The notes under the pieces are model-generated. The model saw nothing but the letters and a program-made list of their open reading frames with translations. It made no database searches and was not told where the DNA came from. From Chloroflexota bacterium (lineage in GTDB: Bacteria; Chloroflexota; Anaerolineae; Anaerolineales; Anaerolineaceae): DNA of 64,000 nucleotides. The stretch lies in assembly GCA_004347695.1 (NCBI GenBank), contig SLTK01000009.1, forward strand, positions 194,328-258,327, given 5' to 3'. The position numbers and the translations under genes are program-made. Positions 4,357-17,563 of this stretch are shown one piece after another (position 1 is the first letter of the stretch; every line of letters starts with the position of its first letter).

Positions 4357-4405
4357 GGGTTACCTTTTTGGTCAAAATTCTACCACGAAGATTGCTGGAT
4401 TGACC

Positions 4406-4421
4406 TGGCACATAACTTGCA
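4406..4421 (+). promoter_or_regulatory. sigma-54 (-24/-12) promoter upstream of rpoN
   Basis: TGGCACA-TAAC-TTGCA matches consensus TGGCACR-N4-TTGCW, 48 nt before the rpoN ATG. Confidence 0.8.
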
Positions 4422-4445
4422 TCTTATTTGGTAATCTTGTATACT
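4417..4445 (+). promoter_or_regulatory. sigma-70-type promoter overlapping the sigma-54 site of rpoN
   Basis: TTGCAT (4417-4422), 17 nt, TATACT (4440-4445). Confidence 0.55.
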
Positions 4446-4469
4446 CCAACCTGAAAATAGGGAAATGCC

Positions 4470-5873
4470 ATGTTTCAACTCCAGCACCCCCAAATCCGAC
4501 CGGTAACCACTGCTCATCTGGCGCAGACGATGACCCTGCTCAACCAGACGGTGGACGAGCTTTACGAACAAATTCAGAAGGAACTGGCCAATCCGGCATT
4601 GGAGTTGGTGGAGGAGCACCGCTGTCCGACGTGCCACCGGCTGATGCCCGGCGGTGGAATGTGCCCGGTATGCAGCCGGCCGAGTTCACAGGCAGGCGAC
4701 GAACCGGTTGTGTTCGTCTCTCCGCGCGAGGATTTTTACCCATCCAGTGCCGGCAGTGCAGAAAATATTCCCGACGAGCCGCTTTCTCCGGCTGTCGAAG
4801 ACCTGCCGACCTACGTCCTGCGGCAAATCGTGTCGGACCTGGAAGTGAATGACCGCAAAATCGCGGCTTACCTGTTAACCCACCTGGATGAAGACGGCTT
4901 CCTGACCGTCCCGCTGAACGATGTGGCGCGCTATTTCCACATTCTCCCGTCTCAGGTTGAACAAATTAAAAAAATAATTCAAAGAGCTGACCCGTTGGGC
5001 GTTGGTTCTTACACGCCGCAGGAAGCACTTCTGGTGCAACTGGATGTGCTGAGTGAAACACGCTATGTACCGGCGCTGTCGGGAGCCATTGTCCGTGAAG
5101 GTATGGACCTGCTCAGCCGCCATCAGTATCCCGAGCTGGCGCGAATGTTGAAAACCACAACAGCACAAATTCAAGAGGCGGTTAAGTTCATCAGTGAAAA
5201 CCTGAATCCGTTCCCAGGACGGGCGCATTGGGGTGATGTCCGGCAGCCTTCTTCCGGCGGCGGACAAACCTACTACTACCCCGATATCATCATCAGTTAT
5301 TTGAATGACATTCCCGATAACCCGCTGGTGGTCGAAATCATTATGCCGCTTCGCGGTACGCTGCGCATCAACCAGCTTTTCCGCCAGGCAACCCGCCAGG
5401 CAAGTGAAGATGCCAAGGAAGGCATGAAGTCCGAGTTGGATCGGGCAGCGTTGTTCGTCAAATGCCTTCAGCAACGAAACCATACCATGCAGCGCATGAT
5501 GCATAACGTGGTTGTTTTGCAGCGTGACTATGTGATGCACGGTGATCGATATATCAAACCGCTCACCCGGGCGCAAATATCCGTAGAGTTGGATGTACAT
5601 GAGAGCACAATTTCCCGCGCAGTTTCCAATAAAACAGTACAATTACCCAATAAGCGCATCATTCCTTTGGCCTCCTTCTTTGACCGGAGTTTGAATGTGC
5701 GAACTGCGCTGCGCGAACTGATTGAAGTCGAACGCAATCCATTAAGCGATTCTCAATTGGTGGTCATGTTATCCAAGCAAGGGTATGATGTTGCTCGCCG
5801 CACAGTTGCCAAGTACCGGGCCATGGAAGGAATTTTACCGGCGCACCTGCGCCGAGTCTCATTACCCGGTTAA
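4470..5873 (+). CDS. rpoN: RNA polymerase sigma-54 factor
   Basis: Gln/Leu-rich region I, NPALE, LDEDGFL, HESTISRAV and the RpoN box ARRTVAKYR. Confidence 0.96.
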   Translation: MFQLQHPQIRPVTTAHLAQTMTLLNQTVDELYEQIQKELANPALELVEEHRCPTCHRLMPGGGMCPVCSRPSSQAGDEPVVFVSPREDFYPSSAGSAENIPDEPLSPAVEDLPTYVLRQIVSDLEVNDRKIAAYLLTHLDEDGFLTVPLNDVARYFHILPSQVEQIKKIIQRADPLGVGSYTPQEALLVQLDVLSETRYVPALSGAIVREGMDLLSRHQYPELARMLKTTTAQIQEAVKFISENLNPFPGRAHWGDVRQPSSGGGQTYYYPDIIISYLNDIPDNPLVVEIIMPLRGTLRINQLFRQATRQASEDAKEGMKSELDRAALFVKCLQQRNHTMQRMMHNVVVLQRDYVMHGDRYIKPLTRAQISVELDVHESTISRAVSNKTVQLPNKRIIPLASFFDRSLNVRTALRELIEVERNPLSDSQLVVMLSKQGYDVARRTVAKYRAMEGILPAHLRRVSLPG

Positions 5874-5881
5874 ACCCATTC

Positions 5882-7834
5882 ATGAAAGAAAAAACTCCTT
5901 CTCCGTTCCAGGCCTTATGGGGCAAACCATCACAAAAAATTGACCCGGGGCGCCTGGCACGGATGCTATTGGATTTGGTGACGGAACCTGCGCTGCTTTA
6001 CGATGCGGCTCAGGGACGATTTTTACACGCAAACAGTCCTTTCCTGGTGTTGACCGCTTACTCCGCGGCTGAAGTAACCAACACTCCGGATGTCGTAATT
6101 TTTGAAGATTTTGATCCTACAGCTCTGGATACCGGAGAAGCCATTCAACTGTCGCTCAAATTACGTAATCGGCCGACCCTGCCGGTCGTCGTGCGGTTTA
6201 CCCAGGTAGAAGCGGCAAGTCAATGGTATGTGCTCCGTATAACCCCTTTGGTGGAACATCAGACCAACACCCGGGAGTGGCAGGAAAAGATCATTCATGT
6301 CCTGAAAACCTTGCCTGGGATTATCCGTGACCAGGACCTCGATCAGGCTTTGAACCAGATGATCGCCATTCCGGGCGAGTTGTTCGATATCAATCTGGTC
6401 TGCATTTATCAAGCGCAAAATGACGCCCCCGAGATGCGTAAGGTAAAAAGCGAGGAGCGGATTTCCTTTTTCCCTGAGACTCTGCCAGCCAGCGACCTGG
6501 TGCGCCTGGCAGGTTCCAACATCTGGGTGCCTGGTAAACGAGTGGTCACCGAACTGCACCGCTCTGCACGGGTTAGTGGATTGTTCTATGTGGCATCTGT
6601 GGCTTTGGGTGACCCCAAAGCATCCATCGGTTTGCTGGTCGTTGGCGGGATCGATTCTCAGCCCCCCCCGCTGCTTGTTGCGGTGATGGAATTGCTTGGG
6701 TCATATATCAATATGGCCTACGAGAATTCTATCCGCAGTGAAAATTTATCCAAAGAGATCCATGAGAGCTCACGCAAGACTACTGCCCGTGAGGTCATGT
6801 ATGAATACGTCCAGGATGGCATTCTGGTGCTGAATCCTGACCTGTCCATTGCTGCGATTAACCCGGCCGCGGAGTTGATCCTGGGGTATACCGACCATGA
6901 GATTACCGGGCAGCCGGTAGAAAACGTCCTCATCAGCCCGGATCGGATCACAGCGGTCCTGGCGAGCGCGGCGGAAGGAATTTCGACGCCAAATCTGGAA
7001 AGCATTACTTTGCACCATCGCGATGGGCAGACCTTCCCGGCGGATGTAAAGGTACTCTCCTACGAATCCGATGGTCGCGTTGCCGGAGTCGTGGTGATTT
7101 TCCGCGACATCAGCGAACATGAACAAATTCGCACCCAGACCCGTCAATTGGAGCAGCGGGCGCTTCTTGGTGAATTCATGGGTGTTTTCGCGCACGAGGT
7201 GCTGAACCCGATCAACAGTATTTCCACCGGAGTACAGGTTTTGGCGCGCCGTCTGGGTTCAGATCACCCTTCCATTGACCTCATTAACCGCATGGAAAAT
7301 GATTGTCAGCGCCTGCATCATCAAATGGAAGTGCTAAAAAGTTATGCCAAGCCATACGAGCCCTTCCAGGAACCGGTTGAAATGGGCAGTCTGATCATGC
7401 GGGTAATCGAACGCTGGCGTCCCCGCATGTCGCGGGTGAATGTGACACCGGTATACCAGGTACCAGAAGGGCTGCCGAAAGTGATGGGAGATTGGCGGGC
7501 TCTGGAGCAGGTGTTTACCAACCTGGTCAGCAACGCCACCGACGCGATGAGCCAAAATGGCGGTATACTATCCGTAAAACTGGATGTGACCACAGACGGT
7601 GCCAATCGAAAGCAAGTGGAAATTGCAGTTTCTGACAATGGTCCCGGCATTCCCGATGAAATTCGGGGGAGAATTTTTGAGCCGTTTGTCACCACTAAAT
7701 CGACCGGTACCGGCCTGGGATTGGCGATTACCAAACGAATTGTTACCGCTCACCGCGGGGTTATTACGGTCAACACCTTCCCCGGCGGCACTGTTTTCAC
7801 TGTAACCTTACCCACCATTGAGGACCAAGCCTGA
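5882..7834 (+). CDS. cytoplasmic PAS/GAF sensor histidine kinase
   Basis: H box FAHEVLNP, N box QVFTNLVSNA, DNGPGI, GTGLGL; PAS motif DGILVL...INPAAELILGY; no obvious TM segment. Confidence 0.92.
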   Translation: MKEKTPSPFQALWGKPSQKIDPGRLARMLLDLVTEPALLYDAAQGRFLHANSPFLVLTAYSAAEVTNTPDVVIFEDFDPTALDTGEAIQLSLKLRNRPTLPVVVRFTQVEAASQWYVLRITPLVEHQTNTREWQEKIIHVLKTLPGIIRDQDLDQALNQMIAIPGELFDINLVCIYQAQNDAPEMRKVKSEERISFFPETLPASDLVRLAGSNIWVPGKRVVTELHRSARVSGLFYVASVALGDPKASIGLLVVGGIDSQPPPLLVAVMELLGSYINMAYENSIRSENLSKEIHESSRKTTAREVMYEYVQDGILVLNPDLSIAAINPAAELILGYTDHEITGQPVENVLISPDRITAVLASAAEGISTPNLESITLHHRDGQTFPADVKVLSYESDGRVAGVVVIFRDISEHEQIRTQTRQLEQRALLGEFMGVFAHEVLNPINSISTGVQVLARRLGSDHPSIDLINRMENDCQRLHHQMEVLKSYAKPYEPFQEPVEMGSLIMRVIERWRPRMSRVNVTPVYQVPEGLPKVMGDWRALEQVFTNLVSNATDAMSQNGGILSVKLDVTTDGANRKQVEIAVSDNGPGIPDEIRGRIFEPFVTTKSTGTGLGLAITKRIVTAHRGVITVNTFPGGTVFTVTLPTIEDQA

Positions 7835-9015
7835 TGTCTATCACCGTTTTGATCGTCGATGACGAAGACAATGCCCGCGCAAACATATCCGAATATTTGA
7901 CTCCCCTCAATTACGAAGTGCTGGGCGCCGCCACCCTGGCGGAGGCGCGCAAGTTCCTGCAGCGGGGAGATGGCGATGTGGTCGTACTCGATGTTTCGTT
8001 GCCGGATGGCTACGGCCCCAGCCTGCTTTATGAGACAGCCAATATGCCGACGCGCCCGCCGATTATTATCATCACTGCCCACGGTGATATCGAGATGGCG
8101 GTCGATGCCATGAAAAATGGGGCGCATGACTTCCTTTCCAAGCCGTTCAAGTTGGACCAACTGGAAACTTCCATCCAGCGCGCCTTCGAAACCGTCCGGA
8201 TGCGGCGCGAGCTGGCGCATTTTCGCGAAGTGCAGAAAAACAGTCTCGACTTTGTCCAGGGGCAGAACCCCGAGTTCAAGCGGATGCTGGAATTCGCCCA
8301 GCGCGCCGGTCAGATGCAAGTTTCGGTTCTGATCACGGGTGAAACTGGTGTCGGAAAAGACGTGCTTGCGCAATATATCCATGCCAGCGGCCCGCGGGCA
8401 AACAAGCCCTACATCGCCATCAATTGTGCTGCCATTCAGAGCACCGTGCTTGAATCGGAATTATTTGGCTATGAAGCCGGAGCTTTTACCAGCGCCGAGA
8501 AACGCAAACATGGTTTGATGGAAGTGGCGGATGGCGGTGTGCTCTTTTTGGATGAAATTTCATCCATGCCGCTGGACATGCAGGCAAAACTGCTGCGCGC
8601 GATCGAGGAAAGCGCATTCCGTCGGGTTGGCGGCACCACCCTGATCAAAGTCGATGTCCAACTGCTGGCAGCCAGCAATCGCAACCTGAAAGACATGATC
8701 GCTGCCGAGGAATTCCGTTCCGATCTCTATTATCGTTTGAAGGTGGTGGATATGCATCTTCCGCCGCTGCGCGAGCGGAAAGATGATATCCCCGAACTGG
8801 TCGGATTCTTCCTGCGCCGGCGCAATGTCGCAATGGGGCAGAATGTGGAAAATATTACCCCGCGCGCTATGGAAGCCCTGATGAAATACAACTGGCCAGG
8901 TAATATTCGCGAGTTAAGCCATGCGATTGAACATGCCATCCTGTTCAGCGACGGTCAAACCATCGATCTACCCGATTTACCATCTGACATCGCTCATAAA
9001 AATCAGTCAGAATAA
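7834..9015 (+). CDS. sigma-54-dependent response regulator (REC + AAA+), lacking a C-terminal HTH
   Basis: REC motifs DD, LDVSLPD, SKP; Walker A GETGVGKD; GAFTSA; Walker B LFLDEI; FRSDLYYRL; WPGNIREL; stop about 32 aa after that last motif. Confidence 0.93.
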   Translation: MSITVLIVDDEDNARANISEYLTPLNYEVLGAATLAEARKFLQRGDGDVVVLDVSLPDGYGPSLLYETANMPTRPPIIIITAHGDIEMAVDAMKNGAHDFLSKPFKLDQLETSIQRAFETVRMRRELAHFREVQKNSLDFVQGQNPEFKRMLEFAQRAGQMQVSVLITGETGVGKDVLAQYIHASGPRANKPYIAINCAAIQSTVLESELFGYEAGAFTSAEKRKHGLMEVADGGVLFLDEISSMPLDMQAKLLRAIEESAFRRVGGTTLIKVDVQLLAASNRNLKDMIAAEEFRSDLYYRLKVVDMHLPPLRERKDDIPELVGFFLRRRNVAMGQNVENITPRAMEALMKYNWPGNIRELSHAIEHAILFSDGQTIDLPDLPSDIAHKNQSE

Positions 9016-9021
9016 ATAATC

Positions 9022-9037
9022 TGGCACGTTACTTGCA
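9022..9037 (+). promoter_or_regulatory. sigma-54 (-24/-12) promoter of the TM-TPR-protease operon
   Basis: TGGCACG-TTAC-TTGCA, exact consensus; RBS GGAGG at 9061-9065 and ATG at 9072 follow. Confidence 0.88.
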
Positions 9038-9071
9038 TCATTCCCATCTGACAGAGTATAGGAGGATGGGA

Positions 9072-9401
9072 ATGAACATTTTAAACTTGACTTCAACAGA
9101 GTTTTTCCTGATTTTGGCCGGAGTTGCGCTGATCATCGGCGTCCTTTTGATCATCATCGGGGTAATCGTCCTGATCTCACGGGTGCTGGGCGGCGATGTA
9201 CGCAAAATCGCTGAGCAAACAGCAACGCTGGCACAAAAAGGGATCGCGGAAGAAGTTGCCGGGCTGGTTGGCAATGCGTCAACGCTGGTTGAATCGTTGA
9301 ACGGCCTGATCAAATCAGCCGCCGGAATTGGCGTCTTCCTGATCATCATCGGATTGCTGCTGCTGGCTGCCTCGTATGGCCTGGCCCTGCAACTCCGTTA
9401 G
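9072..9401 (+). CDS. small two-TM membrane protein of unknown function
   Basis: Two long hydrophobic segments flanking an amphipathic core; GGAGG RBS 6 nt before ATG 9072. Confidence 0.8.
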   Translation: MNILNLTSTEFFLILAGVALIIGVLLIIIGVIVLISRVLGGDVRKIAEQTATLAQKGIAEEVAGLVGNASTLVESLNGLIKSAAGIGVFLIIIGLLLLAASYGLALQLR

Positions 9402-9449
9402 CCAGCGCTTTTATTGGCGATTGTTTCCTCCCTTTAGAGAACAGGAGCG

Positions 9450-12400
9450 ATGATGCAACCTGCGGAAATTTTGGTTGAACTCAGGCGGGTCTTGCCTCCA
9501 GCGGATGCACCCTATGTGCTGACCGCTTTATCAGAAGATGCGTTGGTGTGGAATGCACTCCAACAGCCGGAATTTTTACAGGCAATCCTATCGGATGAAA
9601 GCGTCATTTCGTCTTTCTGGAGTCCGGCCAGCCTCGCTTTACGCCCGCTCGGCAACCGGGTCAGTTTTGCAGATTTAACTGCGGAACATATTCCCGGGAT
9701 CGAAGTTTCGCTGCGCAAACAGGCATTGGAAGTATTGGAGGATACACTGCGCAGCGGTCAACCGCCTGCCAATTTGGCTCAGGCCGGTTTGCTGGCACTG
9801 GCGCTGCGCGAACGCCGCCGCAAAACGCAATCCTGGCGTGGATTTTTAACCGAGCTGCTTTCGGTGCAGAATAAATCTACCAGTAATCTGGTCGAAGTGT
9901 GGCAAACGCCGCTGGCCTGCCTGTATGGGATGATCCCGGACAAATGGGATTTTTTGGAATCGCTGCTGCCGCAAGATTCCATGCACCCGGCCATTGATTG
10001 GATTTCGCACATTATTTTGAGCAACCCGCTGGACCTCCAGACTCAGGTTAAGATGATCCACGATCTGGCAAGCCAACTGGTTGTCGAATACCAGGTGGAA
10101 TGGCTGCGTCATTTAACCGGAAAAGGCCGCTTTGCGCTGGCTTCCGGAATTGCCGATCAATTATTGGACACTGACCGGGAATATTTTGCGGGTTTGGAAG
10201 AACCCTTTCAGCCGGATCATGCTGAATGGGTCGCTGCTTCGCGTAAGATGCTGGACAACCAACTGGCAGCCACTTTGTACCAGGTCGCTGGCCGGCCGCT
10301 GCAGGCAGGAATCTACCTGGATAAGACCCGCAGGCTGTTACAGCACTGGCTGGTCGGAGCTACTCTTCAAATGGCAACGGTCATCGACCATGAAGGCAAA
10401 ATGAATGACGCGGTTTACCAGGAATGCATCGACTTGATGGCGCAGATGCCGGTATCCCCTCAGTTATTAAATGATGCCATGTTTGTTGGAGGCGACGGCA
10501 TTCTCGGTACTCGCCTGGCCGGCTTGCCCAATAGCAATGGGACCATCGCTGCCCGCATTGGCAAAGGTACAACAAAATCTGCGGCCCGGGATTACCACGA
10601 GGAACAGCCTGATGTCCGCAAGGTAGTCAACACCTGGCTGGATGAAGTCGATCAGAATCCAGTCGCCTTGAAAGGCCAATATGTATTCGACTGGGATCCC
10701 AGCGGCTTGTTGGCAACCCTGACTGGTCAGGGAATGCACGTAGAAGCCGTCCAGGCAGGGGAGCGTTTCCTCGCAGTACGGCCGGAAGATATCAGACTGC
10801 TTGGCTGGCTCTCAGAAGCATGTCATGGATTGGGCAATGATGAAAAAGCGGTCAATTTCCGGTTGCGTGCCATTCTTTTGGAGCCGGATCAACCGGAGCA
10901 TCTGCGCAAACTGGCGGAGGTGTGGGAAGACCGGCAAGATTGGGAAGCTGCCCTGGAAGAACGCCGCAAAGTTGCGCAGATGACGCAAACCCCAGCGGTG
11001 GACGACCAATTGGCGCTGGCTGCGACAGCGATTGGCGCGCAGAAATTTGCTGAGGCCAATTCAACTTGCGAAAACATCCTGACAGATAACCCCGAACACG
11101 GCATGGCCTTCACCCTGATGGGAAAAGCGGCATTGGCGCAAGGCGACCTGGAGACTGCGGTTGCACACCTGTCGAAAGCGACCGTGCTGATCCCGGAAGA
11201 ATATATGCCCTGGTTCGAGCTGGCAGAGGCCTACCGCCGTAAGGGCGAAACCCAGCGGGTGCTGGAGACGCTGCGAGAGGCGGTGCTGACTGCACCCGAT
11301 TCTGCTGATCTGCACTACGCTCTTGGGCAGGCTTATCTCGACATCAACCAGATGTCCGATGCGCTTCCATTCCTGCGGCAGTCCGCCCGGTTGGCGCCGG
11401 AATCGGTTCAGATTGCACTGGCGCTGGCGGAAGCGCTGATTACGCTAGGTTACAAGCAGGAAGCCCTGGATGTGGTTGTGAAGGCGCGCGGCAGATGGCG
11501 CGTGCACGATGGTTTGGCTTACCTGCATGCGAAATTACTGCTCAGGGAAGGCGTAATCGAGGAAGGGTTGTCGATTCTGGAGATCGCGCTGCAATCGGAG
11601 AATCCCAAAGCTGAATGGTATGTTCTGTACGCCGAGTCGCTGATGGGCAACCCCGAAGCTTACCTGGCTGATGAGCAATTGGTGGTTGACCTCAATAAAA
11701 TGACCAGGGCTTTTGATGCCTTGCAACAAGCGCTTTTTTTGCAACCGCAATATTTCGCTGCTCGCCTGCTGAATGCCGAGGTTTTGCTGCTGCGCGGCGA
11801 GAACGAACCGGCATTTGGTGCGTATAGCCAGTTGATTGATCTACCCGAAGCGGTTCAGGAAGAATGGTACTGGCGCATACAGGCCGGTCTGGGGCGATCC
11901 TCATTAAACCTGGGTCAAATCGAGACAGCACTGGCTTCGCTGCAGAATGCGGTAACTGCTAAACCCGAGTCGCTCGGGTTGAATTGGCTGCTGGCTGACG
12001 CATTTGCCGAAGGCAACCTGACTGAGTCTGCTGCTGCCGCTGCGGAACAGGCATTGATGCTGGCGCCGGACGATATCCACAATTTGACCTGGTACGCCAA
12101 CTTGATGCTGCGGATCCAGATGCTCGATAAAGCTATTCTGGCATTAAGAGCAGCGATCGAGGTGCAGCCAGAAACCGTAGATCTACGCCTGTCGCTTGCC
12201 GAAGTGCTGTTGGCTAACGGCAACCAGGAGGGCAGCCGGGAAGAACTTGCCAAAGTTGTCACCGAGCCATCCGTGACGGTTGCTCAATTGCGCAAAGCGG
12301 CGCACACCTCCCTGCAAATGGACGATAAGGCCAGCGCACTCTCGACTCTGGAGAAGGCCGCCATAGTGAATGGTGCGCCGGATGCGACGCTCCTCTTCGA

Positions 12401-14897
12401 ACTGGCGGTGCTGAATAAGGACATTCACAAGGTCGATCAGGCGTTGGAATTGACGCAACGCGCCATCCTTGCTGACCCCCAAGAGGTTACATATTACGTC
12501 TTCCAATCCGATTTGCTGGATCAGTTAAATCGGCCGCAGGCAGCGATTACCGCACTTCAACAAGCGCTGCAGCTTAGCGAGGCAAACAATCCTGCAGGTA
12601 ACCTGGCAGCCGGAAAAACAGGCAAAGATATGCCTACTTTTACCGTGGCGGCAAACCTGGTCGATATTCACCGGCGCTTTACTCACTTACTGCAAAAGGT
12701 TGACAACCTCAGCGAGGCTCTGGCGCATGCTGAAAAGGCGATTGAACTTGAACCCGGGAATGCCGAATACCAATTTGTTGGGGCTGAACTGGCCGCCAAA
12801 CTTTTGCAGGACAATCGCGCGCTCGCGTTGGCAACTAATGATACGAATATCACCGAGCCCAACAAACTCAGTCCCTGGCTGGGTGGGTTGTTCAGTATGC
12901 AAGCTGAAAACGCGCTCGAGCATGGTGACGCACATCTGGCATACCGCAAAATCAATGAAGGTCTGAAATTTGACCCGGATGAAACCCGATTATTGGCCGC
13001 CCGTGTACGCGTAATGACCCGCACTGGCGATTTCGCCGAAGCCGAGGAACTCTACGCTGACCTTTGGAAGCGCGTCAATCCAGGATTAAAAAGCAAATCC
13101 ATCCGTGTTGACCGCGAGCAATTCCAATCACAGACTCCTGAAAGCACTCTATTGGGTTTAGCTGAAGCTGCGGTTGAACTTTATCGCTGGGCAGATGCCG
13201 GTCAGTTGCTGGATGCTGTCCTTCGCCGGCAGCCGGCCCAACCTCTGGCTCTGCTGCGCCAATCGCGCGCGATGGTTCGGGCTGCTGAATGGTACCTGAC
13301 CGGTTCGGCGCTGGGATGCGAAGCCCACCTGCCTGACGAAACGGTCGTCAACCAGAAAACCTACATGCGCTTTTCGCAGTTGATTTCCGAACTGGGCAAG
13401 CTGAATAATGCTGCAGAAATCGAACGGTGGAAAGTACGCGGAGAAGCAGTATTCGAACCATCCCCGGCCAGTGTGCGCGGATTCTCGGCCATTTCCATGA
13501 CCGGGGACGATGCCGCTGCATTGGTCATGGCGCTCAACCGGACTGGAAATGGTGAGGGAGCCTGCCAGGTCGGCGATCAATTCAATGATCATGCTCAAGT
13601 ATGCGTCCAACTGGCGACTGTCGCTGTTGAAAATCGACTGGATTACAACCAGCAGGCTGCTTTGCGGGCTGTTGCTCTTGAGCCGAAAAATCCCGTATTC
13701 CAAATCGCCCTGGCGAAGTCTTCTGAAAAATCAGGTGATATCGGCCGCGCGCTGGAAGCAGTCGAAACCGCTCTGGTCTACTGGCCAAATGAAGCTGGCT
13801 GGCAGCATTGGGCTGCCACCTTGGCGCAGCAAATCCATGAGCCGGAAGCTGCCAAAAAACACCTGGAAAAAACGCTGGAATTGATGCCAGCCAACCTGGA
13901 AATTGCGCTCGAGCTGGGTGCGGTTTACCTGACCCTGAAAGATGCACCCAAAGCGGTAAGCGTGCTGGCCAAAGCCGTCCAAATTTCCCCTACACACGCC
14001 CTGGCCTGGTTAAATTACGGCCGTGCATTACTTTCCAACAAGCAATATGCTGATGCGGTCAAAGCGGCTGCCCAGGCGACTCAGTATGGTGGGGATGAAG
14101 CCTATAAAGGTCTGGTGCTGAGCGGCGAGGCCCTGCTGGCTGCCGGTGATGACCGCAAGGCAATGGATTTTGCTCGCGATGCCGAGAAAATGGCGCCCAT
14201 GGTCCCGGAAACCCGCTTGCTGGTCAGTAAGATCTATGCAGCCCGCGGCAAGGACAAGGAAGCGCTTGCAACGCTCACTAAAGCAACTGAAGAAATGCCT
14301 GGAGTGCTGGCGTTGGAAAGCGAACGCGCCCGGCTTATCTATCGGTTGCATGGCGCCGAAACGGCGGTTCAAGTACTGCAGCCGTTGGCAGAACGCTACC
14401 CGGATAACGACCAGGTGATCAGCACCTATGCTGCAGCGCTGGCCGAAAGCGGCAGGGCTGCTGAAGCTGAAAAAGCAGCATTGTTAGCCTTGCGTCTCGA
14501 TCCGCAAAAAGCTGAAATTCATTTACTACTCGGCCGGCTATTTGCCGACTCTGGCCAGTTGGACAAATCCGTGCATCATTTGACTGAATCGGCCCGGCTG
14601 GCGCCTAACCAATCCGATGCCTACCTTGACCTCGGCCGGGTCTTTACCATCCGGCGCGACTTTTCGCAGGCATTGGCCGCTTATCAACAAGCGATGCGCA
14701 CAGCCCCCGAGGATTACCGCTCGTTTTATCAGGCCGGCCTGATCCTGCGTGATGGAAAGGATTATCTGGTAGCCGAAACTATGCTCAGGCGCGCTGCCGA
14801 CCTTGCTCCTACGGACGTCAATATTCGTCGGCAGCTTGGCGCGATTGTTGCATTGAACCTGGTACACAACTGTCAGGAGGCAAACTCATGCCTGTAA
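9450..14897 (+). CDS. giant tetratricopeptide-repeat protein (1815 aa)
   Basis: Many TPR-like repeats (for example A..LG.A...G...A...L..A..L.P) from about residue 430 to the C-terminus; RBS AGGAG. Confidence 0.9.
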   Translation: MMQPAEILVELRRVLPPADAPYVLTALSEDALVWNALQQPEFLQAILSDESVISSFWSPASLALRPLGNRVSFADLTAEHIPGIEVSLRKQALEVLEDTLRSGQPPANLAQAGLLALALRERRRKTQSWRGFLTELLSVQNKSTSNLVEVWQTPLACLYGMIPDKWDFLESLLPQDSMHPAIDWISHIILSNPLDLQTQVKMIHDLASQLVVEYQVEWLRHLTGKGRFALASGIADQLLDTDREYFAGLEEPFQPDHAEWVAASRKMLDNQLAATLYQVAGRPLQAGIYLDKTRRLLQHWLVGATLQMATVIDHEGKMNDAVYQECIDLMAQMPVSPQLLNDAMFVGGDGILGTRLAGLPNSNGTIAARIGKGTTKSAARDYHEEQPDVRKVVNTWLDEVDQNPVALKGQYVFDWDPSGLLATLTGQGMHVEAVQAGERFLAVRPEDIRLLGWLSEACHGLGNDEKAVNFRLRAILLEPDQPEHLRKLAEVWEDRQDWEAALEERRKVAQMTQTPAVDDQLALAATAIGAQKFAEANSTCENILTDNPEHGMAFTLMGKAALAQGDLETAVAHLSKATVLIPEEYMPWFELAEAYRRKGETQRVLETLREAVLTAPDSADLHYALGQAYLDINQMSDALPFLRQSARLAPESVQIALALAEALITLGYKQEALDVVVKARGRWRVHDGLAYLHAKLLLREGVIEEGLSILEIALQSENPKAEWYVLYAESLMGNPEAYLADEQLVVDLNKMTRAFDALQQALFLQPQYFAARLLNAEVLLLRGENEPAFGAYSQLIDLPEAVQEEWYWRIQAGLGRSSLNLGQIETALASLQNAVTAKPESLGLNWLLADAFAEGNLTESAAAAAEQALMLAPDDIHNLTWYANLMLRIQMLDKAILALRAAIEVQPETVDLRLSLAEVLLANGNQEGSREELAKVVTEPSVTVAQLRKAAHTSLQMDDKASALSTLEKAAIVNGAPDATLLFELAVLNKDIHKVDQALELTQRAILADPQEVTYYVFQSDLLDQLNRPQAAITALQQALQLSEANNPAGNLAAGKTGKDMPTFTVAANLVDIHRRFTHLLQKVDNLSEALAHAEKAIELEPGNAEYQFVGAELAAKLLQDNRALALATNDTNITEPNKLSPWLGGLFSMQAENALEHGDAHLAYRKINEGLKFDPDETRLLAARVRVMTRTGDFAEAEELYADLWKRVNPGLKSKSIRVDREQFQSQTPESTLLGLAEAAVELYRWADAGQLLDAVLRRQPAQPLALLRQSRAMVRAAEWYLTGSALGCEAHLPDETVVNQKTYMRFSQLISELGKLNNAAEIERWKVRGEAVFEPSPASVRGFSAISMTGDDAAALVMALNRTGNGEGACQVGDQFNDHAQVCVQLATVAVENRLDYNQQAALRAVALEPKNPVFQIALAKSSEKSGDIGRALEAVETALVYWPNEAGWQHWAATLAQQIHEPEAAKKHLEKTLELMPANLEIALELGAVYLTLKDAPKAVSVLAKAVQISPTHALAWLNYGRALLSNKQYADAVKAAAQATQYGGDEAYKGLVLSGEALLAAGDDRKAMDFARDAEKMAPMVPETRLLVSKIYAARGKDKEALATLTKATEEMPGVLALESERARLIYRLHGAETAVQVLQPLAERYPDNDQVISTYAAALAESGRAAEAEKAALLALRLDPQKAEIHLLLGRLFADSGQLDKSVHHLTESARLAPNQSDAYLDLGRVFTIRRDFSQALAAYQQAMRTAPEDYRSFYQAGLILRDGKDYLVAETMLRRAADLAPTDVNIRRQLGAIVALNLVHNCQEANSCL

Positions 14898-17563
14898 ACA
14901 ACCCAACCAACCTCAACAATCCCCAGATTACGCGCTCTCTCACTCGTTCGACGCTGGTCATGGTGCTGAATGCGGCGCTTGAAGCCAAAGAATATCGCTT
15001 TGCCCGTCAGATGACTTTAACCTGGCTCTCCATTTATCCCGGCGACCTGGAAGTCAACCGTTTCCTGGCGCGCATTTTCAGCCAGGAAAGCAAAACCGGA
15101 CAGGCAATCCAAATTTTGGAAAAAGTGTGCCGGATGGATCCGGAAGACATTACGGCGCAAAAAGCGCTGGCAAAAGCTTATGGGGTAGCCAGCCAGGCGG
15201 ATTACACCCGGGTTTTAGTAGACATCTTTGTTCTTGGTCAACGAGTCGATCCGGCAGTTGCTATGCCGGGTTGGAGCACGATTCTTCGGAATGCGCGCCG
15301 AGCCCTGGCCGATGGAAATTTGGACGCCGCAGAAACTATGCTTTATCAGGTGCTGGCCTTGACGCAGGATCAACTGCTGGCTGCGGTTACCCATCTGGAA
15401 GTCATTCGGGCGCATCGCGACCAGGCCAACCTGCTGAAATTTGGCGAACTTTATCACAGCCAATGGCCTGAAACCGTGATCTTTAAACTGGCGCTGGCTG
15501 AAGCCAAGATGGAAGTGGGAGACGAGGCCGGCGCTGTGACCTTGCTTCACCAGTCCGTGGCTGCGGATGCGGCAGGCCAGGTAACCGGGCGTTGGTGGGG
15601 CGAACATCACCCATACAAGCCTTTATGGCCAGAACATATGGAAATCGGCATGGATATTGCCATTCCGGCCAGCATCGCCACCAGCATGGGTTGGAACCGC
15701 CTGGCGTCATCCGCCAGGGCTGTGGCTCCAGCCTTCACCGTTGAGACCCCGACTGATGCGGCGGATGCATTCCTGCAAACCGCTGAAGCTGCCTACAGCC
15801 AGGAAAGTATGTACGAAGAACAGGAAAAAGCCAGAGCCAAGGCGGCAGCCGCAGCAGCCGCTCAAGCGCAGGCCAAATTAAATCCGCCCGCCTGGTTGAA
15901 AAATACCGAAAAAGAGTTCGAGCGCCTGGCCAAACGGATGAAAACACCGGATATAACCAAAACCGATGGGCGCTTCCCAATCTACGTGGTATTTTCATCA
16001 CGCACCGGACTGCGCAATCAATACGGCGAACAAACCCTGGCTGTGATCGAAAAGGAAATGGTCCGGCTTTCAGACGCCGTCAAGAAACGCGCCGGCTGGG
16101 GCTCCATGGTTTTTTACCCGGATGATATTGAGACTACCGGTAAGCTGGGCATCAATACCACCGGTCAGGTTGACCCCTGGAAGCTCAAATTAGCCATTAC
16201 TGATCTGGATAAAGCTCTCGCCAAAAAAGGCGGTCGAATCGGTGCACTGGTTATTGTGGGCGGTCCCTCGGTCGTTCCATTCCACCGGCTGCCGAATCCG
16301 ACCGATGACATGGATGAGGAAGTCCTTTCAGATAATCCCTATGCTTCGTTGGATTCGAATTATTTTGTGCCCGAATGGCCGGTTGGCCGAATCATGGGCG
16401 AGGTTGGCGAAGATGCCGGACTGCTCCTGCAACAATTGCGCCAGGCAGTCAAGTATCAAAACCAGGCGGCCAAGGGAGCAAAGACTATTCGCCGGGTAGC
16501 CCAGTGGTTCACCTGGTGGCGCTGGTTCCTGCCTTCTGCCAGACCCAATGGAAAAGTAGGCTCCTTCGGTTACACCGCGTCAGTCTGGCGTCGTTCTTCA
16601 CTGGCGACCTATCGTCCGATCGGTGAAGGTCGCACCTTGCAGGTGTCGCCCCCCAGCAACAGCGGCGGTTTCAATTCGAACAAACTGACCGGCTCTCCAC
16701 TTGGTTTTTATAATTTGCATGGGCTGGCTGATACAGCCGAATGGTACGGCCAGGGTGATCCGCTCGAGCGGGGCAGTGGACCTGAATATCCGGTTGCGCT
16801 CAGCCTGACCGATCTACCGAAAAATGGACATGCGCCCAAGGTGGTCTTTACCGAGGCTTGCTACGGTGGCTTTACCATGCAGAAAACCGAATTAACTTCG
16901 CTTGCGCTGCGCTTCCTGTCGATTGGTGCACACGCGGTGGTTGGATCGACCTGTATTTCTTATGGTTCAGTTACCACCCCGCTGGTGGGGGCCGATTTGC
17001 TCGGTTTTTATTTCTGGTCAGCGCTGCGGGAAGGTTATTCGGTAGGTGACGCGCTGCTGCAGGCCAAAGTTTCGATGGTGCGGGAAATGACCAACCGCCA
17101 GGGTTTCCTGGACGGAGAAGACCAGAAGACGCTGATCTCGTTCGTTTTGTACGGCGATCCACTGGTGTACCACGATGGCGTGCAGGTCAGTCCCAAGAAA
17201 GCTGTTCGCTTCCAAAACTATCCGGCAGTAAAAACCATCAGCGATAATGCCAGCGATGAAAACGAAGAGCAAGCCATCAATGAAAAATGGTTGCAATTTG
17301 CCAAACAGGCGGTTTCTCCGTACCTGCCGGGTCTGGACCGCGCTCAAGTCAGCGTCAACCAGCAGCATTGCGAGGTGGATTGCAAGGTTCACCGGGGCAT
17401 TGGGCTGAACCTTGGGCGCAAACAGGCGCAAAAGCAGGTTGCCGATCGAACCGTGGTCATCTTCAGACGCCAGGTGAAAATGGGCGAGCACGATCACATT
17501 CATTATGCCCGCGTCACAATGAACAAGGATGGCAAGATGATGAAGATGGCGTTTTCGCGATAA
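14888..17563 (+). CDS. TPR-like N-terminus fused to a peptidase C25 (gingipain-like, clan CD) domain
   Basis: IVGG..VVP, SDNPYA, PVGRI, His in YNLHGL (H611), Cys in FTEACYGG (C658), GAHAVVGST, VGDALLQAK, LYGDP; start overlaps the upstream stop by 10 nt. Confidence 0.72.
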   Translation: MPVNNPTNLNNPQITRSLTRSTLVMVLNAALEAKEYRFARQMTLTWLSIYPGDLEVNRFLARIFSQESKTGQAIQILEKVCRMDPEDITAQKALAKAYGVASQADYTRVLVDIFVLGQRVDPAVAMPGWSTILRNARRALADGNLDAAETMLYQVLALTQDQLLAAVTHLEVIRAHRDQANLLKFGELYHSQWPETVIFKLALAEAKMEVGDEAGAVTLLHQSVAADAAGQVTGRWWGEHHPYKPLWPEHMEIGMDIAIPASIATSMGWNRLASSARAVAPAFTVETPTDAADAFLQTAEAAYSQESMYEEQEKARAKAAAAAAAQAQAKLNPPAWLKNTEKEFERLAKRMKTPDITKTDGRFPIYVVFSSRTGLRNQYGEQTLAVIEKEMVRLSDAVKKRAGWGSMVFYPDDIETTGKLGINTTGQVDPWKLKLAITDLDKALAKKGGRIGALVIVGGPSVVPFHRLPNPTDDMDEEVLSDNPYASLDSNYFVPEWPVGRIMGEVGEDAGLLLQQLRQAVKYQNQAAKGAKTIRRVAQWFTWWRWFLPSARPNGKVGSFGYTASVWRRSSLATYRPIGEGRTLQVSPPSNSGGFNSNKLTGSPLGFYNLHGLADTAEWYGQGDPLERGSGPEYPVALSLTDLPKNGHAPKVVFTEACYGGFTMQKTELTSLALRFLSIGAHAVVGSTCISYGSVTTPLVGADLLGFYFWSALREGYSVGDALLQAKVSMVREMTNRQGFLDGEDQKTLISFVLYGDPLVYHDGVQVSPKKAVRFQNYPAVKTISDNASDENEEQAINEKWLQFAKQAVSPYLPGLDRAQVSVNQQHCEVDCKVHRGIGLNLGRKQAQKQVADRTVVIFRRQVKMGEHDHIHYARVTMNKDGKMMKMAFSR

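Follow-up and report, generated by a model that had tools for sequence, protein, structure and literature searches.

The window, a stretch of 64,000 nucleotides (nt) from a Chloroflexota genome of the family Anaerolineaceae (contig SLTK01000009.1 of assembly GCA_004347695.1), carries at positions 4406 to 17563 a cassette of six genes, in which a regulatory operon for the sigma factor sigma-54 (rpoN), a sensor histidine kinase and an NtrC-type activator is followed directly by an effector operon. The latter encodes a small protein with two transmembrane segments (2-TM protein), a very large protein of tetratricopeptide repeats (TPR) and a protein that joins TPRs to a predicted gingipain fold. 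The features, in window coordinates and protein lengths in amino acids (aa), are:

4470-5873, + strand: rpoN (sigma-54, 467 aa), with matches to Sigma54_CBD and Sigma54_DBD
5882-7834, + strand: sensor histidine kinase with PAS, HisKA and HATPase_c matches (Pfam), after an 8-nt gap from rpoN
7834-9015, + strand: NtrC-type activator with REC, Sigma54_activat and AAA lid matches, overlapping the kinase gene by 1 nt
9072-9401, + strand: 109-aa 2-TM protein, two transmembrane segments, no known family
9450-14897, + strand: 1815-aa TPR protein, TPR repeats, cytoplasmic
14888-17563, + strand: 891-aa protein with TPRs and a predicted gingipain fold, its start overlapping the TPR gene by 10 nt, cytoplasmic
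4406-4421, + strand: putative -24/-12 promoter of the rpoN operon, TGGCAC-N5-TTGCA, GC at 4419-4420, predicted start at about 4432
4417-4445, + strand: putative sigma-70 (sigma-A) type promoter of the rpoN operon, -35-like TTGCAT at 4417-4422, 17-nt spacer, -10 TATACT at 4440-4445
9022-9037, + strand: putative -24/-12 promoter of the effector operon, TGGCAC-N5-TTGCA, GC at 9035-9036, predicted start at about 9048
9039-9074, + strand: predicted hairpin in the leader of the 2-TM gene, 5' arm 9039-9048/9, 3' arm 9065-9074, probable read-through insulator

The six genes, their couplings and their spacing stand where the initial annotation had placed them, in agreement with the list of open reading frames and the domain matches, and the two near-identical promoters of which it spoke are exact matches to the -24/-12 pattern. 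The 19-mers CTGGCACATAACTTGCATC (4405-4423) and CTGGCACGTTACTTGCATC (9021-9039) are both found in the window, and the 16 positions that they have in common are matched twice in it and not once in 100 dinucleotide shuffles; the genes and promoters of the cassette are beyond chance. Hydrophobic segments occur only in the 109-aa protein (two of them) and are absent from the sigma factor, the kinase, the activator, the TPR protein and the 891-aa protein.

The sigma factor matches PF04963 (1.4e-30) and PF04552 (2.5e-31) of Pfam and contains the RpoN box ARRTVAKYR; its score of 251 against TIGR02395 (NCBIfam) is slightly under the curated cutoff of 277. Its gene is present once in the genome, which is 91% complete, and is single-copy in 38 of 41 relatives. 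Region II of the protein (window 4620-4676, residues 52-68) holds a CPTC...CPVC motif that resembles a zinc ribbon. The kinase is soluble, without a hydrophobic segment, and its first 300 residues give sub-threshold PAS matches only. The AAA+ domain of the activator matches PF00158 (2.3e-65, Pfam), with a sigma-contact loop, GAFTGA in its canonical form, that reads GAFTSA in the window and, among the orthologues, either GAFT[G/S/D]A or GSFTGA. This protein covers positions 1-386 of the 463 in the NtrC profile and its AAA lid extends to residue 392 of 393; a C-terminal helix-turn-helix of Fis type, the part that binds upstream activating sequences, is absent from it, a DNA-binding domain is likewise absent from all 21 readable orthologues, and in each of these the C-terminus lies 29-47 residues past the motif WPGNIREL. 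It thus belongs to the DNA-binding-less subgroup of CtcC and FlgR, activators which act from solution. The genome encodes a single true sigma-54 activator (two further, weak matches to PF00158, at 28-34 bits, are open frames of 843-851 aa), and in the order as a whole the activator is present in 125 of 151 genomes, nearly always as a single open frame of 390-420 aa. A minimal sigma-54 system of one sigma factor, one kinase and one DNA-binding-less activator is kept across the order.

The regulatory and the effector genes travel together. Gene order had been named beforehand as an observation on which the initial annotation would stand or fall, and the succession rpoN, kinase, activator, 2-TM, TPR and C25 gene (the last for the 891-aa protein and its orthologues) is found in 20/20 loci that reach back to rpoN, out of 32 fetched with the 891-aa protein at protease identities down to 32%; most of the remaining loci end short of rpoN, and two (L020, L024) extend 4.5 kb upstream without any regulatory gene. 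The cassette is present in the cultured Levilinea saccharolytica and Ornatilinea apprima, and a homologue of the protease in Bellilinea caldifistulae. It is single-copy, syntenic and vertically inherited across the order, and usually adjoins alaS; in the window a divergent M28 peptidase gene lies upstream of it, and alaS, with a sigma-70-like promoter of its own, downstream. Of the 151 genomes, 110 have the protease together with the short activator and 27 have neither, the protease occurring without the activator in 9 and the activator without the protease in 5 (Fisher 2.5e-17, a value not corrected for phylogeny); whole families are without both. An even sample of the phylum contains this type of protease in just 9 of 201 genomes; the system is thus essentially specific to Anaerolineales.

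Upstream of rpoN the sequence has the arrangement TGGCAY-N5-TTGCAN-N17-TATACT in 28 of 30 relatives. In these, the spacing of -35 and -10 is invariant at 17 nt, while the sequence of this spacer and that of the spacer between -24 and -12 are variable. The -12 element of the predicted sigma-54 promoter would thus double as the -35 element of a sigma-A-type promoter, which a scan for the sigma-70 consensus misses, because the -35 agrees with it at only three of six positions; the evidence for this promoter is its conservation across species. It resolves how sigma-54 could be made from a sigma-54 promoter in the first place (bootstrapping), and it implies that two holoenzymes would compete at the site. 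The closed complex of sigma-54 would lead to autorepression as long as the activator is inactive and to positive feedback once it is active. The self-amplification that had been proposed for the switch is thus possible, as rpoN has its own -24/-12 element, and autorepression by occlusion is equally plausible, because the sigma-70-type promoter is interlocked with that element.

It could further be argued that the sigma-54 site of rpoN is mainly an autorepressor, its closed complex blocking the sigma-A -35, so that the regulatory operon is expressed at a constant level and only the downstream promoters switch. The exact overlap of -12 and -35 and the conserved 17-nt spacing would suit this role, as would relative L025, where a sigma-70-type promoter alone (TTGACA-18-TATACT) precedes rpoN, and the rpoN genes of Pseudomonas putida and Bradyrhizobium are known to be negatively autoregulated. 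However, the -24/-12 element of rpoN scores no lower than that of the effector operon (30.1 vs 27.5 bits), and an activator without a DNA-binding domain cannot distinguish between promoters, so that an activated cell should fire the rpoN site too; a mainly repressive site is possible rather than probable.

The -24/-12 site 5' of the 2-TM gene is conserved in 22 of the 25 loci in which this gene was located, with variable spacer and flanks; L020, L024 and L025 have a site with one mismatch upstream of it, in which GG and GC are kept. Where the effector operon is unlinked from rpoN (30-500 kb away or on another contig), the pattern NGGCAY-N5-TTGCA, with one mismatch and GG-N10-GC intact, still occurs 30-65 nt before the 2-TM gene in 8 of 9 loci, a count made only where that gene was found and comprising L020, L024 and 6 of 7 newly fetched loci. 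Both parts of the original proposal, a dedicated module of sigma-54, kinase and activator and a sigma-54 promoter in front of the operon for the 2-TM, TPR and C25 proteins, thus extend across the order and are co-inherited, the promoter being kept when the two blocks are separated.

Between this promoter and the 2-TM gene, nucleotides 9039-9074 of the window form a predicted hairpin of -18.1 kcal/mol (z = -5.7 against shuffles). The stem, of 10-20 base pairs, begins 3 nt past the GC of the -12 element and pairs promoter positions -9 to +1 with the Shine-Dalgarno spacer and the ATG of the 2-TM gene; its arms differ in sequence among lineages and retain their complementarity, as in CATTCCCATC/GATGGGAATG, CATCATTGCCTC/GAGGCAATGATG and CCTCCTGAG/CTCAGGAGG. 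Assessed by folding locus by locus with shuffles and with two negative control sets, the 2-TM leaders have a mean z of -4.5 where the operons stand in tandem (n = 17), the rpoN leaders of the same genomes one of +0.15 (n = 13), and the 2-TM leaders of operons unlinked from rpoN one of about 0 (n = 8); the difference between linked and unlinked leaders has a Mann-Whitney p of 7e-6. The 5' arm ends where transcription by sigma-54 is predicted to begin (12 nt past the GC), so that RNA started there would not contain the hairpin. Since it is found only where the operons are in tandem, the hairpin probably insulates the effector operon from read-through of the regulatory operon, by masking the translation start and, where a U-run follows, also by termination. 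A second, weak terminator-like hairpin, GCCAGCGCTTTTATTGGC, lies at window 9401-9418 between the 2-TM and TPR genes, and could reduce expression of the large proteins relative to the membrane protein.

Sites of the same type are not confined to the cassette. The genome contains eight exact matches to TGGCAY-N5-TTGCA, of which six lie within 200 nt upstream of a gene start on the same strand; for a random position the proportion is 8.6%, giving P of about 1e-5 for six of eight. The case for a regulon rests on this positioning and on conservation, not on the count in this genome, and a control with the reversed pattern underestimates the chance of motif matches. Across genomes, the density of the motif is 3.1 per Mb in the 124 that have the system and 1.08 per Mb in the 27 that do not (5e-11). 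Two of the six are the promoters of the cassette, and the other four (C4, C6, C8 and C9 being contigs) are:

C4:72025-72040: sigma-54-type site of the FtsL-like gene, straddling the rsmH stop codon, 37 nt before the gene
C6:704838: sigma-54-type site of ftsZ2, 25 nt before the ftsZ gene
C8:98041-98056: sigma-54-type site of a PAS-GAF-HD-GYP gene, 128 nt upstream
C9:25618: sigma-54-type site upstream of a LysM lipoprotein gene

The first of these is kept in 25 of 30 relatives and absent in a genome lacking sigma-54. It lies in the dcw cluster, which has the order mraZ, rsmH, a 162-aa gene, the gene of a 609-aa penicillin-binding protein, mur genes and mraY. The 162-aa product, encoded between rsmH and ftsI, is an FtsL-like single-pass membrane coiled coil, which the FtsL_Actino profile matches with an E of 3.7e-6, below its cutoff; the site would thus be a sigma-54 promoter internal to the dcw cluster. 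The HD-GYP gene, which encodes a putative phosphodiesterase of cyclic di-GMP (c-di-GMP), also has the site before its orthologues in four further species of the genus. Sites that are weaker or confined to certain clades stand before genes encoding LCP, CpaB, sortase and DUF4013 proteins. In sister clades (L075, L082, L079, L073, L076, L083, all other species of the genus) sites lie before the genes for CpaB/RcpC (Tad pilus), a sortase, a DUF4013 membrane protein and a TPR histidine kinase; the orthologues of these genes in the present genome have no exact site.

A site of this type stands, in at least six species of the genus, before the gene of a 440-aa 'group A' protein (motif GFHYFPDT), which is followed directly by ftsZ2. 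This protein, of 440-465 aa (motif LGFHYFPDTLHYTE; C6:703483-704859 in this genome), is always encoded directly upstream of the FtsZ paralogue and has no match in Pfam, NCBIfam or PDB sequences. In the deep-branching clade of L031, L032, L034 and L036, the C25 gene, the 440-aa gene and ftsZ2 are contiguous, and the L030 locus ends inside the 440-aa gene. The paralogue of the present genome (C6:704878-706026) lies about 500 kb downstream on the same contig and is 49% identical to the FtsZ of the dcw cluster (C4:86986-88083). Its T7-loop motif reads NVDFSH, with the His in 11 of 11 orthologues, as against NLDFAD in the canonical dcw FtsZ; it thus departs at the second Asp of the NxDFxD motif, which we take to be the residue that activates GTP hydrolysis. 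These observations suggest common regulation of the effector operon and an FtsZ paralogue, extending in one clade to co-transcription, and a promoter type that the operon has in common with ftsL-ftsI. Contrary to what had first been thought, the circuit is thus not self-contained, since ftsL, the group A gene with ftsZ2, the HD-GYP gene and others likewise have conserved -24/-12 sites upstream; and because of the co-regulation with the FtsZ paralogue and the promoter type common to ftsL-ftsI, the function would lie in cell division or envelope remodelling, not in the stress response or programmed death that had been suggested, for which there is no support.

Of the effector proteins, the 891-aa one comprises a TPR domain (residues 20-240), a predicted gingipain fold (about 355-780) and a C-terminal beta domain. 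Direct assignment to C25 through Pfam or NCBIfam failed, and a profile search of PDB sequences matched TPR proteins only; among 35 orthologues, 23 match Pfam Peptidase_C25, with a best E of 3.4e-16. Kgp is the top Foldseek match of the full-length AlphaFold model (pLDDT 71), and a model of residues 355-780 (pTM 0.81) matches RgpB (4ief_D, E 1.6e-9, TM-score 0.51) and Kgp (6i9a, 4rbm), followed in a second tier by separase, SAVED-CHAT and the TPR-CHAT protein of Craspase. By its models the protein thus has the alpha-beta fold of caspases and gingipains (clan CD), its C25 assignment resting on the orthologue matches and the fold together. The residue pairs H611-G612 and A657-C658 do not vary among 28-35 orthologues, the most distant at 32% identity, and H611 and C658 are the probable catalytic dyad, putative equivalents of the gingipain residues. 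Of the 'TPR-C25 protease' first described, the clan CD fold and the conserved His/Cys pair are borne out, and the C25 label does not follow from any direct profile match of the protein in the window; protease function and substrates are inferred. As to its partners, the TPR repeats of the 1815-aa protein begin at about residue 470, its first 420 residues having no match in Pfam, NCBIfam or PDB sequences, and the 2-TM protein has none in these collections either.

Clan CD includes transpeptidases, and the C25-like protein could therefore act on envelope or division proteins as a transpeptidase or ligase, like PorU, a C25-related sortase of the type IX secretion system, or the legumain-type ligases, or as a catalytically silent scaffold. 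Its catalytic loop is modelled poorly, and the candidate regulon is rich in envelope functions (the LCP protein and LysM lipoprotein, with sortase and CpaB in sister clades), both of which would agree with such a role; on the other hand, the invariance of H-G and A-C across the orthologues argues for catalysis, and the lack of an export signal would put wall substrates out of direct reach. We consider this improbable. Less probable still is a switch for defence, abortive infection or programmed death on the pattern of TPR-CHAT/Craspase or SAVED-CHAT systems, in which a TPR sensor would gate a caspase-like protease and the 2-TM protein would act as an effector that damages membranes. Both appear among the second-tier fold matches, and such systems typically combine TPRs with a clan CD protease and a small protein of two transmembrane segments. 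However, PADLOC finds no match for the protease or the 2-TM protein, and for the 1815-aa protein only a weak one in its TPR region (E 6e-4), which is not a credible hit; the cassette is single-copy, syntenic and vertically inherited beside alaS, with no mobile-element context seen; and its promoter type is common to ftsL, with ftsZ2 co-regulated and, in one clade, co-transcribed. A defence system was rejected on the PADLOC result and the vertical inheritance. Hardly credible, finally, is a secreted, gingipain-like nutritional peptidase: homologues are named 'C25 family cysteine peptidase' or 'gingipain domain-containing protein' in public records, and a sediment survey counts the C25 genes of metagenome-assembled genomes of Chloroflexi among the extracellular peptidases (PMC8359207), but the 891-aa protein has neither a signal peptide nor a hydrophobic segment (maximum 19-residue hydropathy 1.51), its N-terminus is a TPR domain modelled with confidence, and its gene is translationally coupled to that of a cytoplasmic TPR protein, and the candidate was rejected on the hydropathy, which shows no export signal. 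The protein is a cytoplasmic relative of C25, not a secreted enzyme of gingipain type, and surveys that score Chloroflexi C25 genes as extracellular probably misplace this orthologue group.

These considerations lead us to favour, with moderate confidence, a reading of the cassette as the core of an Anaerolineales-specific sigma-54 system, whose most likely function is regulated intracellular proteolysis on a membrane-tethered TPR scaffold, within a phosphorylation-triggered programme of division or envelope remodelling in these filamentous bacteria; the regulatory architecture, as predicted, is well supported by conservation. The regulatory operon would be transcribed from two interlocked promoters, the sigma-A-type one (TTGCAT-17-TATACT) giving basal expression and the sigma-54 one sharing its TTGCA as the -12 element. 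Unactivated sigma-54 holoenzyme would occlude the sigma-A -35 and so provide homeostatic autorepression; the phosphorylated activator would make the bound complex productive and turn repression into positive feedback. As a DNA-binding-less activator acting from solution, it could fire every -24/-12 promoter in the cell. The conserved, co-inherited target would be the adjacent operon, with the 2-TM protein, the 1815-aa TPR protein and the translationally coupled cysteine protease of TPR and gingipain fold, all but the 2-TM protein being cytoplasmic. Read-through into this operon would be silenced or terminated by the hairpin, and transcripts started by sigma-54, without the 5' arm, would be translated. 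The promoter type would be common to ftsL-ftsI, to the 440-aa gene with the FtsZ paralogue (T7-loop Asp changed to His) and to the HD-GYP gene.

Several points weigh against this reading. Both start sites, their dependence on sigma-54 and the effect of the hairpin are predictions. A MAFFT/RNAalifold alignment yields no single consensus hairpin (6 pairs, -3.2 kcal/mol), because loop length and register differ among lineages, and a U-tract follows the hairpin in some lineages only, which makes termination uncertain. The eight exact motifs of this genome, taken alone, are not clearly above the k-mer expectation of 4.6, and up to 10-12 matches occur even in genomes of the family that are without the system, so that many matches are not promoters. 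The cross-genome statistics are not phylogenetically independent. Peptidase_C25 (PF01364) has no match in the window's 891-aa protein at E up to 10, and the His loop of its model is of low confidence (pLDDT < 50). The link to division, lastly, is one of guilt by association.

A further-reaching form of the proteolysis reading, which we put forward tentatively, is that of an alternative divisome module under sigma-54 control, in which part of cell division or of the shaping of filaments would be gated by phosphorylation. A single activator would fire ftsL-ftsI, the ftsZ2 of altered GTPase with its 440-aa partner, and the TPR/protease scaffold all at once, and the protease would process division or envelope proteins in the manner of separase or HetF.

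The cassette bears on several fields. Sigma-54 is essentially uncharacterised in Chloroflexota, the sole mention found being of 'some Chloroflexi' (PMC3162934), and a literature search found no publication on the cassette or on a sigma-54 promoter at dcw or ftsZ genes; the tie of sigma-54 to dcw genes and an FtsZ paralogue is thus a link found in no paper. Two unusual promoter designs are proposed, one in which a -12 element doubles as a sigma-A -35, with a conservation of this overlap at rpoN across species that is new here, and one with a hairpin that only read-through transcripts could form. The abundant C25 'gingipain' homologues of Anaerolineae would be intracellular and regulated, and their scoring in metagenomics of sediments and reactors should change. 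As cultured carriers exist, the predictions are directly testable.

Among known systems, the closest in fold are the gingipains RgpB and Kgp (PDB 4ief, 4rbm, 6i9a), which are the best matches (E 1.6e-9 to 4e-9, TM-score about 0.5); the 891-aa protein has an H-G...A-C pair, and its C-terminal beta domain may be a counterpart of their immunoglobulin-like domain. Unlike them, it is cytoplasmic and has no signal peptide, prodomain or C-terminal domain of the type IX secretion system, with an N-terminal TPR domain instead; 47 residues separate its His and Cys, an interval whose insert is modelled poorly, and the similarity is too low for a direct Pfam match. Separase and TPR-CHAT (Csx29/Craspase) likewise combine a clan CD protease with a large helical-repeat scaffold thought to gate its activity, and separase acts in division. 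The analogy would be functional only, as there is here no match to a CHAT or separase profile and no securin-like or CRISPR partner, and the scaffold consists of a separate 1815-aa protein in addition to the fused TPR domain. Filamentous cyanobacteria offer a parallel in HetF, an intracellular protease of clan CD (CHAT family) that is tied to division and differentiation. The parallel holds only by analogy, since HetF is CHAT and not C25, is anchored in the membrane by itself and does not stand under sigma-54 control.

On the side of regulation, sigma-54 has been described as a controller of the bacterial exterior, and as present in 'some Chloroflexi' (Francke et al. 2011; PMC3162934). That study gives no account of the cassette, of a sigma-54 promoter internal to dcw or of one on an ftsZ paralogue (PMC3162934). 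The candidate regulon fits its theme, with envelope, division and c-di-GMP functions (ftsL-ftsI, LCP, LysM lipoprotein and HD-GYP, and CpaB and sortase in sister clades).

For the circuit itself, the closest described systems are two. The FlgS-FlgR-sigma-54 system of Helicobacter and Campylobacter is a comparable one with a DNA-binding-less activator. In Chlamydia trachomatis, CtcB-CtcC-sigma-54 drives a developmental regulon through CtcC, which is without a DNA-binding domain (PMC7482065). As in both, a single sigma-54 is served here by one two-component pair, with an activator of receiver and AAA+ domain that lacks a DNA-binding domain, and the regulon would be developmental or envelope-related and not metabolic. 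What sets the present system apart from both is that a single operon, preceded by predicted sigma-A and sigma-54 promoters that interlock, carries rpoN, kinase and activator; its main target follows immediately downstream, the kinase is soluble, and the targets would be a TPR/C25 module and division genes where the other systems control type III secretion or flagellar genes.

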